The position numbers and the translations under genes are program-made. From Flavobacteriales bacterium (GTDB lineage: Bacteria; Bacteroidota; Bacteroidia; Flavobacteriales_F; PHOS-HE28): a stretch of 64,000 nucleotides of DNA. The notes under the pieces are model-generated. The model saw only the letters and a list, made by a program, of their open reading frames with translations, did no database searches and had not been told where the DNA came from. Position 1 is the first letter of the stretch; every line of letters begins with the position of its first letter. This document shows, one piece after another, positions 6,836-57,386 of this stretch. The stretch spans positions 3,765,284-3,829,283 of the forward strand of contig CP065018.1 in assembly GCA_016700415.1 (NCBI GenBank), read 5' to 3'.

Positions 6836-7573
6836 ATGAGCGGGGGCCATGTGAAGCGCATGCGTGCGCTGCATCAGCGCAAGTTCCGGGAGGCCGAAGG
6901 GCTGTTCCTGGTGCAGGGGCGGAAGATGCTGCGCGAACTGCTGGCCACCCGGTTCGAGGTGGTGGAGCTGCATGCCACGGAAGAAGCGGCCCGTGAAATG
7001 GGCCTTGCCGACGCGGTCATTTCCCCTGCGCATGATCTGGAGCGCATGGGCACTTTTACTCAGGGCAACGAGATGGTAGCGGTGGTGCGGAAACCGGCCC
7101 CGGCCTCGCTGATCTTGCCAGCGGCCGACCGTTTCGTGCTGGCCGTGGACGACGTTTCCGACCCCGGCAACCTCGGCACATTGCTGCGCATCGCGGACTG
7201 GTTCGGAGCGGAACAGTTGTGGTGCTCCACCGAAAGCGTGGAGGTCTGGAATCCGAAATGCGTGCAGGCGAGCATGGGTTCGATCTTCCGCGTACCGGTG
7301 GTGCCGACCGAACTGCCCGCTGCATTGCGGCAGGCTGCTGAAGGAGGCGTTCATATCTACAAGGCCGAAGCCTCGGGCGCGGATGTTTTCACCGTGAAGT
7401 TGGCCCGACCCGCCGTGCTGGTGCTGGGCAGTGAATCACACGGACTGTCGAAATGCGTGTTGGATGCGCCCGGAAGTTCCATCGCTATTCCGTCCTTCGG
7501 CGGGGCGGAATCGTTGAACGTTTCAGCGGCGGCGGCTGCGCTTTGTATGGAGCTGGTGCGGCATGGGCGGTGA
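6836..7573 (+). CDS. TrmH/SpoU-family RNA 2'-O-methyltransferase
   Basis: MSGGHVKRMRALHQRKFREAEGLFLVQG (substrate-binding N-domain) then SPOUT motifs DDVSDPGNLGTLLRIADWFG, LVLGSESHGLS, IPSFGGAESLNVSAAAA; start at 6836 preferred over track 6782. Confidence 0.8.
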   Translation: MSGGHVKRMRALHQRKFREAEGLFLVQGRKMLRELLATRFEVVELHATEEAAREMGLADAVISPAHDLERMGTFTQGNEMVAVVRKPAPASLILPAADRFVLAVDDVSDPGNLGTLLRIADWFGAEQLWCSTESVEVWNPKCVQASMGSIFRVPVVPTELPAALRQAAEGGVHIYKAEASGADVFTVKLARPAVLVLGSESHGLSKCVLDAPGSSIAIPSFGGAESLNVSAAAAALCMELVRHGR

Positions 7574-9014: not shown

Positions 9015-9171
9015 AAACATAGTGACTCCCGTAAACTACATTTTACTAAGCTTCACTCCCGAAATGGAACGATCCGCCACACATTCGCCCGCAGGGATGT
9101 CCGCTTCGGGGCCGATACGTATCGGACCGAACAGTTCATCAGCGTGGGTGCCGAGCGAAGTCGAGGTGCAT

Positions 9172-9404
9172 CAACCCGTCAACCCGTCAACCCGTCAACC
9201 CGTCAACCCGTCAACCCGTCAACCCGTCAACCCGTCAACCCGTCAACCCGTCAACCCGTCAACCCGTCAACCCGTCAACCCGTCAACCCGTCAACCCGTC
9301 AACCCGTCAACCCGTCAACCCGTCAACCCGTCAACCCGTCAACCCGTCAACCCGTCAACCCGTCAACCCGTCAACCCGTCAACCCGTCAACCCGTCAACC
9401 CGTC
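9172..9404. repeat. perfect tandem microsatellite, 8-bp unit CAACCCGT (CCGTCAAC) x about 29
   Basis: Uninterrupted cgtcaacc repeats from 9172 to 9404; unit length not a multiple of 3; plus strand open in all frames, minus strand has a stop in each unit. Confidence 0.95.
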
Positions 9405-9487
9405 TTCTAAAGTTACCTTCAGTACTTCCTCCTCCACGCTCCCGGCTTGGGTGTTTCCACACGCGGCATAGTGCAAAACCCCTTGCC

Positions 9488-16608: not shown

Positions 16609-17340
16609 CTACCCTTCGAACGTGAACGTCAGCACATAGGTCTTGGTGCGGAGGCTCTGTATCGGTCTGCTGAATCGCGTGTCATCGTCCACCACTAAGT
16701 TTGGGATGCCGATGCCGGTCTTCAGCTCGATGCCGAACTTGAAGTAGGGGAGGAACATGTCGATACCGGCACCGGCCTCCGCGCTGTAGTCGTATTTTTT
16801 CAGTTTCACCACGATGTCCTCGTCGATGTCGTTATTCACGTCCTTCTTGCTGGCCATGTCGATGCCGAACTTGCCGCCACCGATCACATAGACCGCGAAG
16901 TTGTTGATGCGGTCGCTGCGGAATTTCAGCAGGAGCGGGAATTCGAGATAAGTGCTCTCGATGGGTTTCTGGAAGCTGGAGGTCGTGCCGTCCGCCTTGC
17001 GGAAGGAGTACTTAAGGATGCGGTCCTGGAAGGAGAGTGTGGGCAGGAAGCGCAGGCTGAGGTTGTTGGTCATGTTCAGCGAGGCCACGATGCCGAGGTT
17101 GAAACCGGGCTGCTTCACGTGGTCGATCACCAGCACGGAATCCGCGAAGGGCGCGGTGGGCTTCAGCGTCATGAAGAAGTCACTGGTGTTGTAGCTGAGC
17201 AGGAAGCCGAAGTGGAAGCGGTGCAGGTCGAAGTTGGGCAGGTTCTGGACCTTCACACCGGTGCGTTGGGCGGAAGCCGGGGCCGCGATGCAGAGGAGCA
17301 GGAGCGGAGCGAGGAGGTAGGAGAGCTTGAGGAAACGCAT
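16609..17340 (-). CDS. PorT-family outer-membrane beta-barrel protein
   Basis: MRFLKLSYLLAPLLLLCIAAPASAQ signal peptide then alternating-hydrophobic beta-strand pattern, C-terminal ...TYVLTFTFEG; start at 17338-17340 rather than track 17385. Confidence 0.6.
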   Translation of the reverse strand: MRFLKLSYLLAPLLLLCIAAPASAQRTGVKVQNLPNFDLHRFHFGFLLSYNTSDFFMTLKPTAPFADSVLVIDHVKQPGFNLGIVASLNMTNNLSLRFLPTLSFQDRILKYSFRKADGTTSSFQKPIESTYLEFPLLLKFRSDRINNFAVYVIGGGKFGIDMASKKDVNNDIDEDIVVKLKKYDYSAEAGAGIDMFLPYFKFGIELKTGIGIPNLVVDDDTRFSRPIQSLRTKTYVLTFTFEG

Positions 17341-17391
17341 CGGGTAAAGCAACGAAAGTAGCGGGCAATTCGTGCGTGGGCTCATTTGCGG

Positions 17392-17618
17392 CAGGGCTAT
17401 CGGGTCTTGAGCGCCCTGCGGGCGCCTAAGACCGCGTGTTCTTTACCACGGATGGACACGGATCAACACGGATCCAAGCCCCAAGGTCGATGAGCCTATG
17501 CTTAGGGATCCATTGCTCTGTGCTGTCCCTCATCCGTGTACATCCGTGTCCATCCGTGGTTCCTTGCATGCTGTGCGAAGCGCCGATAGGCGCGAGAAAT
17601 TAAGACCCGATAGCCCTG
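17392..17618. mobile_element. MITE-like non-autonomous element (227 bp) with perfect 17-bp terminal inverted repeats and 10-bp target-site duplication
   Basis: TIRs CAGGGCTATCGGGTCTT (17392-17408) and AAGACCCGATAGCCCTG (17602-17618); direct repeats TCATTTGCGG at 17382-17391 and 17619-17628; interior has inverted triple heptads (cacggat x3 / atccgtg x3); no ORF. Confidence 0.7.
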
Positions 17619-18335
17619 TCATTTGCGGGCCATGTACAGCGTGGCCACGCCGAAGGTGAGCAGGCGCGAATTGATCTCTTTTAGTCCACAGGTGTTCAGC
17701 ACTTCTTCAAAGGCTTTTCCCTGCGGGAACGCGTCCACACTTTCGGGCAGGTAGGTGTAGGCGGCGTTGTCCTTGCTTACCAAGCGGCCGATCAGCGGCA
17801 TCACCCGGTGGAAGTAGAAGCGGAACAATTGCTTAAAGGGCGTGCGTTGCGGCCTGCTGAACTCCAGCACGAAGAGCCTTCCACCGGGGCGTAATACGCG
17901 CACCATCCCGGCAATGCCCCGGGCGAGGTCCTCGAAGTTCCTAACGCCGAAGGCCACGGTGATCGCATCGAAGGAAGCGTCCGGAAAGGGAAGCTCCGCC
18001 GCATCGGCCTGTATGAGTTCGATACGGTCCGACAGGCCGGCTTTCTCCACCTTGGTGCGGCCATGGGCCAGCATGCCCGCCGAGATGTCCGCGCCGGTGA
18101 CGTGCTTGGCCACCGTGCTGCCCATGATGGCGAGGTCAGCGGTGCCGGTGGCCACATCCAGCAGGCGGTCCACGGGTTCCTTGCCCACGCCACGGATCAC
18201 TTTCCGGCGCCAGCCTTGGTCGGTACCCAATGAGCAGAGCCGGTTCAACAGATCGTACTTCGGAGAGATGCGGTCGAACATCAGTTCCACCTGCTCCCGC
18301 TTGGACCCTTCGGCCGCGTACGGTTTTACGGTCAT
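17619..18335 (-). CDS. menG: demethylmenaquinone/ubiquinone C-methyltransferase
   Basis: MTVKPYAAEGSKREQVELMFDRISPKYDLLNRLCSLGTDQGWRRK...LLDVATGTADLA... UbiE/MenG class I SAM MTase; start at 18333-18335 inside track ORF 17619..18491. Confidence 0.85.
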   Translation of the reverse strand: MTVKPYAAEGSKREQVELMFDRISPKYDLLNRLCSLGTDQGWRRKVIRGVGKEPVDRLLDVATGTADLAIMGSTVAKHVTGADISAGMLAHGRTKVEKAGLSDRIELIQADAAELPFPDASFDAITVAFGVRNFEDLARGIAGMVRVLRPGGRLFVLEFSRPQRTPFKQLFRFYFHRVMPLIGRLVSKDNAAYTYLPESVDAFPQGKAFEEVLNTCGLKEINSRLLTFGVATLYMARK

Positions 18336-19350: not shown

Positions 19351-20526
19351 TCAACCCAGCGCGGCAACGGCCTTTGCGATGCGGTCCAGGGCCTCGGTGA
19401 GCATTTGGTCGCTGGTGGCATAGCTGATCCGAACGGTGCCGGGCGCACCGAAGGAATCCCCTTCCACCAAGCTGACACCGTGGTCCAGCAGGTACATGGA
19501 CAGCTCGGTGCTGTTGGTGATCTTTCCCTTGAAATTGCTGGAGACATCGGGCAGCACATAGAACGCGCCGTCCGGTGTGGTGCATTTCCAGCCGGGCACT
19601 TTTTCCAGGCCCTTCAGCACCAGATCGCGGCGGCGTTTGAAGACGCTTCGAAGGCCGCCGATCACAGCCGGGTCCGCTTCCACGCACGCCTTGGCCACGC
19701 GCTGTGCGATCCCGTTGGCGGCGCTGGTGAACTGCCCTTGCACTTTGTTGGCCGCTTCCACGATGGCCAGCGGCGCGCCGATATAACCGATGCGCCAGCC
19801 CGTGAGCGCGAAGGCTTTCGAAAGGCCGTTCACCGTGATGGTCCGTTCCAACATGCCGGGCACGGTGCCGATGGAACGGTGCGTGCCGCTGAAGTCGATG
19901 TGCTCGTAGATCTCATCGCTCAGTACGAAAAGTTCGGGCCATTTCAGCACCACGGCCGCGAGCTCCTCGAGTTCGGCCATGGAAAGCACCGAGCCGCTGG
20001 GGTTGCAGGGCGAGCTGAAGATGAGCAGACGGGTGCGCGGGGTGATCGCGGCAGCGATGCGCGCGATCGGCGGCTTGTAGTTTTCTTCCAACGTGCTGGG
20101 CACCAGTACGGGCGTGGCACCGGCAAAACGGACCTGTGCCTCATAGCTGACCCAGAACGGGGCGGGGATCACCACCTCGTCGCCGGGGCCGGCCAAGGCG
20201 AGGATCACGTTCATGATGCTCTGCTTGGCCCCGGTGCTCACCATCACCTGTTCCGGTGCATAGTCCAGCCCGTTGTCGCGCTTGAACTTGTGTGCGATGG
20301 CCGCGCGGACGTCCATGTAACCCATCACCGGCGGGTACTTGTTCCACTTGTTTTCCGTGATGGCCTGCTTGGCCGCTTCGATGGCGAATGCGGGCGGGTC
20401 CTGGTCCGGTTCGCCGAGGCTGAGGTCGATGATGTCCTTGCCTTGGGCACGCAACTCACGGGCGCGGCGGGCCATCAACAGGGTGGCGGACTCGGTCATA
20501 GAGCGGACAACGGGGGACAATTGCAT
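19351..20526 (-). CDS. aspC: aspartate/aromatic aminotransferase (class I PLP-dependent)
   Basis: MQLSPVVRSMTESATLLMARRARELRAQGKDIIDLSLGEPD..., SKAFALTGWRIGY (PLP lysine); start at 20524-20526 inside track ORF. Confidence 0.8.
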   Translation of the reverse strand: MQLSPVVRSMTESATLLMARRARELRAQGKDIIDLSLGEPDQDPPAFAIEAAKQAITENKWNKYPPVMGYMDVRAAIAHKFKRDNGLDYAPEQVMVSTGAKQSIMNVILALAGPGDEVVIPAPFWVSYEAQVRFAGATPVLVPSTLEENYKPPIARIAAAITPRTRLLIFSSPCNPSGSVLSMAELEELAAVVLKWPELFVLSDEIYEHIDFSGTHRSIGTVPGMLERTITVNGLSKAFALTGWRIGYIGAPLAIVEAANKVQGQFTSAANGIAQRVAKACVEADPAVIGGLRSVFKRRRDLVLKGLEKVPGWKCTTPDGAFYVLPDVSSNFKGKITNSTELSMYLLDHGVSLVEGDSFGAPGTVRISYATSDQMLTEALDRIAKAVAALG

Positions 20527-20619
20527 GCGCGGAAATGGATTCGGGGCCGGAACGGCTGGATCATACGAGGCCGCGAAATTAGCCGTTAGGCTGGAAGAAG
20601 GTCCGGGCCATGGTTGTAA

Positions 20620-20780
20620 TACCATTTAGACATAGAGAACGATCCAACCTGCTTGTTCTTTTCCCGCATTACTTCTCCGAATGGATCGTCCCGTAGCTAC
20701 GGCTATGCAACAATCCATTCGGATCGTACTGCGAAAAAATAACGGCGCATCTTCGGACTGTTCTCTATGTCCAAATGGTA
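20620..20780. mobile_element. MITE-like element (161 bp) with 21-bp TIRs (1 mismatch), nested internal palindromes and TAA flanking duplication
   Basis: TACCATTTAGACATAGAGAAC (20620-20640) vs GTTCTCTATGTCCAAATGGTA (20760-20780); flanking TAA at 20617-19 and 20781-83; inner 10-bp stem CCGAATGGAT/ATCCATTCGG (20677-20722) enclosing perfect palindrome CCGTAGCTACGG (20691-20702). Confidence 0.55.
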
Positions 20781-20844
20781 TAAGTACCGACCGTTATTCG
20801 TTGGATCAGGTCTTCCGCCCGAACTTCGCCGCAAACATTTCCGC

Positions 20845-21384
20845 ATGACCGGTGATCAATTGTACCAAGTGCTGCTGACCCTGCTGCCCTCCATCGTGGT
20901 CTTCCTCACGGCCTACTACCTGCTGCGGCAGCTGCTGGGGTCGCGCAACAGCGCGGAGAACAACCAGATCATGGCGGAGGCGAAACGCGAGGACCGCAAG
21001 CAAACCCTTCCTCTGCGCTTGCAAGCGTACGAGCGGCTGACCTTATTCCTCGAACGGATCGCACCGGGGGCCTTGGTCTTCCGAGTCCACAAGAACAACA
21101 TGACCGCACGGATGCTGCATGCGGAGCTTTTGGCCACGGTTCGCGAGGAATTTGAGCACAACGTGACGCAGCAGGTCTACGTGAGCGACCGGGCGTGGCA
21201 GCAGGTGAAGATGGCCAAGGAGGAGACCCTGCGCATCATCAACATCGCGGCGGAAGGCTTGGGCGATACGGCCAACGGAACAGCGCTCAGCCAGCGGGTG
21301 TTCGAAACGGCAGGCAAGCTCTCCCACCTGCCCACGCAACAGGCGATCGCGGCGCTGAAGGAAGAGGTGCGGAAGTTGTTTTAA
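20845..21384 (+). CDS. hypothetical membrane-anchored protein
   Basis: MTGDQLYQVLLTLLPSIVVFLTAYYLLRQLLG (single TM) then charged/coiled region; track start 20767 lies inside the right TIR of the MITE-like element, so 20845 preferred. Confidence 0.45.
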   Translation: MTGDQLYQVLLTLLPSIVVFLTAYYLLRQLLGSRNSAENNQIMAEAKREDRKQTLPLRLQAYERLTLFLERIAPGALVFRVHKNNMTARMLHAELLATVREEFEHNVTQQVYVSDRAWQQVKMAKEETLRIINIAAEGLGDTANGTALSQRVFETAGKLSHLPTQQAIAALKEEVRKLF

Positions 21385-25930: not shown

Positions 25931-26154
25931 ATGGCGCAGCGCGAAGTTACCGGCGTACCGATCATGGACCGGATCTTCGAGGCCGCTTCGCGGATCACTG
26001 GCGTTGGGAATAACCACGGTCGCCCTCTATCCCAATTGCCTACAGATCGAAATAAACCTTCCAAGAATCCCCGAAAAGGGGTATTCAATCCATTTTACCC
26101 ACTGAACACGGCCATCACTTATCTTCACCGAATAACCAATCAGAACCCACCAAC

Positions 26155-43706: not shown

Positions 43707-43752
43707 AGCTTGAGGCTTGTGGCTGAGTGCTTCAAGCCACAAGCCTCAAGCT
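43707..43752 (+). terminator. rho-independent terminator after nos operon (perfect 18-bp stem, 10-nt loop, T-rich tail)
   Basis: AGCTTGAGGCTTGTGGCT gagtgcttca AGCCACAAGCCTCAAGCT ttaatctt; preceded by a second perfect 20-bp palindrome CCTGCCTGCCGGCAGGCAGG at 43664-43683. Confidence 0.7.
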
Positions 43753-44455: not shown

Positions 44456-44495
44456 GAAAGTCGGTAGAGGCGTCCGCGAGGGCGCCTTTGCTGTT
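44456..44495. repeat. 40-bp gene-distal repeat element, copy 1 (GAAAGTCGGTAGAGGCGTCCGCGAGGGCGCCTTTGCTGTT)
   Basis: 39/40 identical to 46250..46289; lies about 35 bp after the fasciclin gene stop; contains short GC-rich inverted repeat AGGCG...CGCCT. Confidence 0.7.
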
Positions 44496-46249: not shown

Positions 46250-46289
46250 GAAAGCCGGTAGAGGCGTCCGCGAGGGCGCCTTTGCTGTT
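46250..46289. repeat. 40-bp gene-distal repeat element, copy 2
   Basis: GAAAGCCGGTAGAGGCGTCCGCGAGGGCGCCTTTGCTGTT, 7 bp after stop of 45926..46243. Confidence 0.7.
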
Positions 46290-49108: not shown

Positions 49109-49154
49109 ACGAGGTTCGGAGATCTGATTTCTGATACAGGGTATTGGGTACTTA

Positions 49155-49190
49155 GTACAGGGTACTGTACGTCGGCAGTACCCTGTACTC
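49155..49190 (+). terminator. terminator hairpin after nrdJ (14-bp stem AGTACAGGGTACTG / CAGTACCCTGTACT, 8-nt loop)
   Basis: Perfect inverted repeat 47 bp after nrdJ stop; no strong U-tract. Confidence 0.55.
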
Positions 49191-49271
49191 GGTACCGTTC
49201 CGAACATATCGGTCCTTTAATAGTTAGGAAACCTTACTATATTTGTCCCCGAACTTCAAAACCCCAACACA

Positions 49272-57336: not shown

Positions 57337-57370
57337 TTATCCGCGTCCATCCGTGTCCATCCGTGGTTCG
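57337..57370. repeat. partial copy of the inner arm of the 17392..17618 MITE-like element
   Basis: ATCCGCGTCCATCCGTGTCCATCCGTGGTTCG vs 17531..17563 CATCCGTGTACATCCGTGTCCATCCGTGGTTCC; no TIRs present here. Confidence 0.6.
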
Positions 57371-57386
57371 TTCTAAAATCGACAAC

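Follow-up and report, generated by a model that had tools for sequence, protein, structure and literature searches.

A 161-bp element between divergent aspC-like and DUF7935 genes of an uncultured Flavobacteriales lineage is very probably a MITE inserted at a TAA site

Introduction

In the 64-kb stretch of DNA analysed here (hereafter 'the window'), the spacer between two divergently oriented genes holds a 161-bp element (20620–20780) whose two ends are inverted copies of each other. Such symmetry may belong to mobile DNA, to a structured RNA or to a binding site serving both promoters, and the question is which of these the element represents. The homologues of one flanking protein, DUF7935, place the window among uncultured bacteria labelled 'Flavobacteriales bacterium' by NCBI. 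The two genes, both lying outside the element, are as follows:

19351..20526, minus strand: aspC-like aminotransferase class I/II gene (PF00155, E 9.5e-71)
20845..21384, plus strand: DUF7935 gene, 179 aa (PF25589, E 1.2e-56)

As argued below, the element is very probably a MITE – a small non-coding transposon – that became inserted at a TAA site in this uncultured Flavobacteriales lineage.

Architecture of the element

An earlier note, made from the sequence of the window, had described a 161-bp element with 21-bp terminal inverted repeats (TIRs) differing at one position, TAA flanks, a stem and a central 12-bp palindrome. All of these proved to be in place:

20617..20619, unstranded: left copy of the target-site duplication (TSD), TAA; the relative L040, with an empty site, has a single CAA at that point
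20620..20780, unstranded: MITE body, 161 bp, 45% G+C, non-coding; its halves are diverged inverted copies forming one long hairpin
20620..20640, plus strand: left TIR TACCATTTAGACATAGAGAAC, kept in the related copies L036, L025, L021B and L013
20676..20723, unstranded: apical stem-loop, with an 11-bp perfect stem and the 12-bp palindrome CCGTAGCTACGG
20760..20780, minus strand: right TIR GTTCTCTATGTCCAAATGGTA, with one mismatch to the left TIR
20781..20783, unstranded: right TSD copy, TAA

The TIRs match at 20 of their 21 positions, and their motif has no further occurrence in the 64-kb window at three or fewer mismatches (0 of 100 shuffles). The perfect palindrome occupies 20691–20702, while the inner stem (TCCGAATGGAT / ATCCATTCGGA) consists of 11 perfect pairs within a pair of 22-nt arms of 82% complementarity. 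What the earlier note under-described is that complementarity runs through the whole element: its arms are 73% identical as inverted copies over 164 nt, allowing pairing along the entire length. The symmetry of the hairpin is a product of the element's origin, its two halves being diverged inverted copies of one sequence.

In base composition, too, the element stands apart, with 45% G+C against about 60–65% in its flanks, and the longest direct repeat at its borders is exactly 3 bp. No reading frame is open across the whole 161 bp, and a Pfam search of its internal ORFs gave no match. In short, the element combines several features by which a MITE is recognised: short length, TIRs, a TSD seen against an empty site, and no coding capacity.

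An empty site in a close relative

Orthologous loci were gathered via the DUF7935 protein. The most informative is L040, a 766-kb contig whose DUF7935 protein is identical at 175 of 179 positions (98%) and whose DNA is about 94–95% identical to the window. Here the spacer reads ...ggttgCAAgtacc..., compared with ...ggttgTAA(161 bp)TAAgtacc... in the window; in alignment, ...gggccatggttgCAAgtaccgaccg... of L040 stands opposite ...gggccatggttgTAA(161 bp)TAAgtaccgaccg..., and a longer reading of the junction sets ...ggtccgggccatggttgCAAgtaccgaccgttattcg... against ...ggtccgggccatggttgTAA(161 bp)TAAgtaccgaccgttattcg.... The two spacers differ in length by exactly 164 bp, that is, by the 161-bp element plus one extra trinucleotide. 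The trinucleotide at the empty site is a single CAA, not TAA, so that one substitution (C versus T) must be assumed. This clean empty site proves a 3-bp target-site duplication and bears out the reading preferred in the earlier note, a MITE with a 3-bp TSD; related copies with TTA/TTA flanks in other contexts (see below) bear it out as well.

On the side of presence, 11 other assemblies match the whole 318-bp spacer, with the element in it, at 100% identity. They are several NCBI MAGs as well as JGI, ENA and Logan contigs; in 10 of them the DUF7935 protein is identical to that of the window, and in one (L001) it differs by a single residue. The insertion is now fixed in every recovered assembly with an identical or near-identical DUF7935 protein. 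On the side of absence, the comparison of orthologous intergenic regions that the earlier note had called for yielded, besides the empty site of L040, further relatives without the element at the orthologous spacer: L037 (96% DUF7935 identity), L002 (93%), L038 and L039 (both 92%) and L003 (84%). We also looked in distant Flavobacteriales for the 161-bp sequence standing at the orthologous position but lacking a flanking duplication, and found no such case.

The spacer between aspC and the DUF7935 gene is hypervariable among relatives, and this variability suggests that it may be under weak constraint. Two side observations concern the same spacer. In L002 it contains a different insert, about 430 bp long (186–610), in which a 35-nt unit occurs twice at a distance of 158 bp, both times with the perfect 22-bp palindrome AAGTTGCATGGCCATGCAACTT inside it; in L037 it takes yet another form. 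The spacer seems to be a hotspot where small insertions accumulate.

Related copies at other loci

JGI metagenome contigs were scanned with the TIR core, the matches were followed up by blastn, and the loci were then read. The scan returned 17 loci, four of which hold true relatives, at three distinct insertion sites. One more copy, L036, emerged from a search with the element's six-frame translation for mis-called ORFs, where it was the only match. Together these give five further independent insertions, 167–210 bp long, on other metagenome contigs and with different gene neighbours:

L036: 184 bp, flanks TTA / TTA, read as TTA–TACC...GGTA–TTA
L025: 208 bp, flanks TTA / TTA, with a transketolase-C-like gene on one side and a DUF6624 gene on the other
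L021A: 210 bp, flanks TTA / TTA, more distantly related, sharing the ends TACCATTT...AATTGGTA
L021B: 167 bp, flanks TTA / TTA, directly to the right of L021A, the middle TTA being common to both
L013 / L018: 168 bp, flanks TTC / TCA, a single locus in two samples, its left end and flanks decayed

Four of these five are flanked by TTA/TTA. Counting the one copy in the 64-kb window, we thus have six independent insertions, two of which share the contig L021; the flanks are TAA or TTA in five of the six and decayed in the remaining one. The DUF6624 gene beside the L025 copy has its nearest relatives in Flavobacteriales MAGs; a second empty site was sought in L055, the closest relative of that gene, where gene order differs, and none was obtained.

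When the window copy is aligned with four other copies, the termini are conserved and the internal indels are modular. L036 and L025 have about 23 extra nucleotides at the point of the window copy's central palindrome, this palindrome being the remnant of an apical deletion. In L021B and L013 the whole inner right arm has been lost, between two GGATCG repeats, with the termini kept; it is therefore the ends that are conserved, not the fold.

On contig L021 (836–1914), the two copies stand back to back (928–1137 and 1141–1307) with one TTA in common, inside a truncated and frameshifted IS5-family transposase gene (NF033578 positions 325–417; PF13586). The frame of this pseudogene is restored once both elements and one TTA are removed.

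The other loci returned by the scan were set aside. Two of them, L012 and L024, are satellite-like arrays with 51-bp and 18-bp periods (L012 3–238 and 960–1134; L024 553–839), and the 51-bp unit holds a 20-mer identical to the TIR core of the MITE with no other similarity, probably a coincidence. In L009 and L019, both low in G+C, the motif forms direct repeats, and the rest are isolated matches that lack the TA terminus.

Spurious start codons

The element carries outward-facing ATGs at both ends, and these bear on the annotation of both neighbours. The earlier note had held that the ATG within the right TIR, at 20767, from which a 205-aa DUF7935 ORF (20767–21384) can be read, is spurious, and this was borne out: nearly all of the 2310 homologues detected are 179 aa long, which corresponds to the ATG at 20845, and L040 has no counterpart of the upstream ATG. 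The start at 20845 follows the right TSD copy at a distance of 61 nt, over which the sequence is conserved. Much the same applies on the left, where an over-long aspC ORF of 424 aa (19351–20625) begins at the outward-facing ATG in the left TIR (20625–20623, minus strand). The true start of aspC is the ATG at 20526 (MQLSPVVRSMTES...), gene calls in sister assemblies being 391 or 382 aa.

Possible effects on the neighbouring promoters

Granted that the element is a MITE, it may have been co-opted since its arrival, supplying or insulating a promoter or forming a hairpin in the 5' leader of aspC or of the DUF7935 gene. Of the rival readings this one fares best, although we regard it as improbable. 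One feature bearing on it is the following:

20574..20581, minus strand: TAATTTCG, a -7-like box with one mismatch to the Bacteroidota TAnnTTTG, within the anchor gccgcgaaattagcc; putative promoter function

This box is intact; it precedes the aspC ATG by about 48 nt and is separated from the element by 36 nt. The anchor around it shows no difference in L001, L002, L003, L038 or L040; in L037 two of its bases are substituted (gaccgcgaacttagcc). The element thus sits about 36 nt upstream of a conserved -7-like box of aspC, and it brings a weak box of its own that faces the same gene (TATTTTTT, one mismatch, 20741–20734, minus strand); its fixation and complete identity in 11 other assemblies may likewise be taken to favour a function. 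Identity across assemblies is, however, what one would expect in a single young population without selection, and the hypervariability of the spacer argues for weak constraint. Moreover, the -7-like boxes are weak matches, for which no -33 TTTG partner turned up, and a scan for sigma-70-type promoters and terminators found nothing. Co-option of the window MITE has no positive support, any effect on the neighbouring promoters being conjectural.

Which bases are duplicated?

That the element was inserted does not by itself settle how its borders are to be parsed. The earlier note had mentioned TA targeting as a variant, and the flanks could indeed be those of a TA-duplicating MITE (of the IS630 / Tc1-mariner or Correia-like kind), with TAA as an extended target: T-A-A-(TACC...GGTA)-T-A-A can also be read as TA-(A + element)-TA-A, a parse that fits the empty site as well. 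Yet the repeat at the borders measures exactly 3 bp, and under this parse the extra base would fall on the left in the window copy and on the right in L036, L025 and L021B, despite the same internal orientation of all four. A 3-bp TAA – or TTA, when the element is inserted in reverse orientation – needs no extra-base assumption. We consider the TA-targeting variant highly improbable, a 3-bp TAA/TTA duplication being the more parsimonious account. An IS200/IS605-type palindrome-associated element, with subterminal hairpins and neither TIRs nor TSD, does not fit the mutually inverted ends and the 3-bp duplication.

RNA or operator instead of a transposon?

The remaining alternatives, both raised in the earlier note, would do away with mobility altogether. 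The first sees in the element a structured non-coding RNA gene or a cis-regulatory RNA hairpin of aspC or the DUF7935 gene. It draws on a very stable predicted fold: for a 179-nt region the folding energy is -81.2 kcal/mol (z -10.6) on the plus strand and -95.1 kcal/mol (z -13.8) on the minus strand, and in the three long-hairpin copies the minus-strand RNA is 11–15 kcal/mol stabler than the plus-strand RNA. The covariance search proposed in the earlier note nevertheless speaks against an RNA, since no Rfam family is matched: Rfam 15, run over the whole window at gathering thresholds, gave no match, and around the element, with E values up to 10, only a chance match of a miRNA model to the apical hairpin appeared (19 bits, versus a gathering score of 83). 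Nor is an RNA easily squared with the absence of the element from the spacer in relatives at 84–98% protein identity, including one with an exact empty site, with copies that stand beside unrelated genes and have target duplications of their own, or with L021B and L013, which have dispensed with the inner right arm and kept their termini. There is, in all, no indication of an RNA function of the hairpin, and the RNA reading, already largely refuted, is barely tenable.

Next to no credence can be given to a palindromic operator or regulator site common to the two divergent promoters, for all that the location in a divergent spacer and the long dyad symmetry would suit one: the same points apply – above all the absence of the element from close relatives at the locus – and, in addition, the dyad is not conserved at the locus in the relatives checked, and the conserved promoter-side anchors gccgcgaaattagcc and cttcgccgcaaa, which relatives without the element also have, are situated beyond its borders.

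Search for a parent element

A MITE needs a transposase from elsewhere, and an autonomous IS with matching TIRs was sought in the window, in the fetched loci and in genome, metagenome, viral and plasmid collections. None was found, the collection searches requiring an exact 17–19-mer, which a diverged parent could escape. The exact 19-mer CCATTTRGACATAGAGAAC occurs among GTDB species representatives as five singletons in unrelated taxa, without an inverted partner and at about chance level, the host species not being among the matches; the IMG/VR scan with a 17-mer gave 14 chance matches, none of them extending, and a distant blastn search of PLSDB plasmids gave no match. Nor did the 64-kb window, the fetched loci or 20 kb of the sister genome contain a second copy or a full-length element, and the literature search with the TIR strings brought up no paper in which the family is described.

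Two candidates were considered and rejected. The IS5-family remnant beside the L021 copies has its reading frame interrupted by the elements, and no matching end lies past its 3' end. A full-length ISAs1-family IS in L040 has ends that match a different MITE (see below), not the 161-bp element.

Proposed mechanism

Returning to the MITE, the sequence comparisons are compatible with the following course of events. A DDE transposase encoded elsewhere in the genome would bind both 21-bp TIRs, and the element would be inserted into the TAA trinucleotide of the spacer between the aspC-like and DUF7935 genes; a cut staggered by three bases, at TNA, would then be repaired so as to duplicate the TAA. 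The insertion would post-date the split from the sister lineage, whose DNA is about 94–95% identical. From the duplications we infer movement in trans by a DDE transposase making 3-base staggered cuts at TNA, and our best guess is that this enzyme is IS5-family (IS1031-like) or Harbinger-like, because such enzymes make 3-bp TNA/TWA duplications.

A bolder and rather unlikely idea is that the family – with its ends TACCATTT...AAATGGTA and its 3-bp TAA/TTA duplications – may be mobilised by an as yet uncatalogued lineage of transposases from uncultured, high-G+C Flavobacteriales. It would then parallel Harbinger/Tourist behaviour in bacteria, with ends that would differ from those of described IS5-family groups; the window copy may also have been co-opted, reshaping the divergent aspC/DUF7935 promoter region.

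Other mobile DNA and repeats in the window

The 161-bp element is not the only small mobile element in its neighbourhood. A second, unrelated MITE of 226 bp lies 3 kb away at 17393–17618, with the TIRs CAGGGCTATCGGGTCTT / AAGACCCGATAGCCCTG and a 10-bp TSD (TCATTTGCGG at 17383–17392 and 17619–17628); its interior contains a 29-nt inverted repeat of ATCCGTG-type units (17445–17560), and a related half-copy is found at 57339–57372. For this MITE, too, L040 provides a clean empty site, with a single TCATTTGCGG at 6940–6949. Both MITEs are thus intergenic, occur in the same genome and are absent from L040 at clean empty sites, whereas the second has a 10-bp TSD, other TIRs and an identifiable parent IS in L040. 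The latter, at about 16803–18032 of that contig, is the full-length ISAs1-family IS mentioned above, which encodes a 368-aa transposase (PF13808+PF01609), has the same ends as the second MITE (CAGGGCTATCGGGTCTTAA) and is flanked by GGTATTCA; judging by these ends, it is likely to be the parent type of the MITE at 17393–17618. It is absent from the window, the junction being at 26079–26087.

Further repeats were noted. The stretch 9171–9412 is a tandem array in which the 8-bp unit CAACCCGT is repeated perfectly about 30 times, and degenerate copies adjoin it on either side (9107–9452). A 40-nt direct repeat, its two copies 98% identical and 1794 bp apart (44456–44495 and 46250–46289), contains a G+C-rich hairpin (GGCGTCCGCGAGGGCGCC), and perfect or near-perfect hairpins are found at 43707–43752 and 49147–49196; these may be terminators.

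Implications

The most immediate consequence is for annotation: through the outward ATGs at its ends, the element turns a 179-aa DUF7935 protein into one of 205 aa and a 391-aa aspC product into one of 424 aa, and the first of these errors is propagating, the 205-aa version (P0122) having been called on 37 public contigs. As a presence/absence marker, the element separates closely related populations of activated-sludge Flavobacteriales. Taken with the second MITE 3 kb away and the ISAs1-family IS of the sister genome only, it shows that small mobile elements are actively reshaping the spacers between genes in this uncultured lineage. In itself it is an ordinary sort of mobile DNA, and would raise a new biological question only if the mobilising transposase were unusual.

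Comparison with known systems

Correia, ERIC and Nezha are among the bacterial MITEs, and Correia elements duplicate TA rather than a trinucleotide. Another example is MITECca01 of Cardinium, in the Bacteroidota (PMC9769881). With bacterial MITEs in general the 161-bp element shares a length below 300 bp, TIRs, a TSD, the lack of a transposase gene, an intergenic position and the capacity to form a hairpin from end to end. Its sequence is unrelated to theirs, and MITECca01 has an IS982-family parent in the same genome (PMC9769881), while for the 161-bp element no parent was found.

As to the kind of duplication, the IS1031 group of the IS5 family prefers 5'-TNA-3' and generates exclusively a 3-bp direct repeat (PMC12016507), and the six insertions described here, at TAA/TTA and with one pair of flanks decayed, are alike in this respect. 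The termini differ: compared with the inverted repeat of the group member ISLrh (GAACCTG...; PMC12016507), the element begins with TACCATTT, and since its TA-ended termini are unlike the ISLrh end, membership of the IS1031 group is not claimed. No IS1031-type transposase with ends matching the element was found in our searches. The IS5-family remnant near the L021 copies does match the 419-position IS5 profile NF033578, but it is interrupted, not bounded, by the elements.

Among eukaryotic transposons, the TSDs of Harbinger/Tourist-like elements are TAA/TTA. TSDs of 3 bp are also the rule for canonical Harbinger transposons, which are relatives of IS5 (PMC12730594). The Tourist-like MITEs of the PIF/Harbinger superfamily resemble the 161-bp element in having 3-bp TSDs and in being short, hairpin-forming and non-coding; they are eukaryotic, however, and have other termini, so that the likeness is one of mechanism, not of membership.
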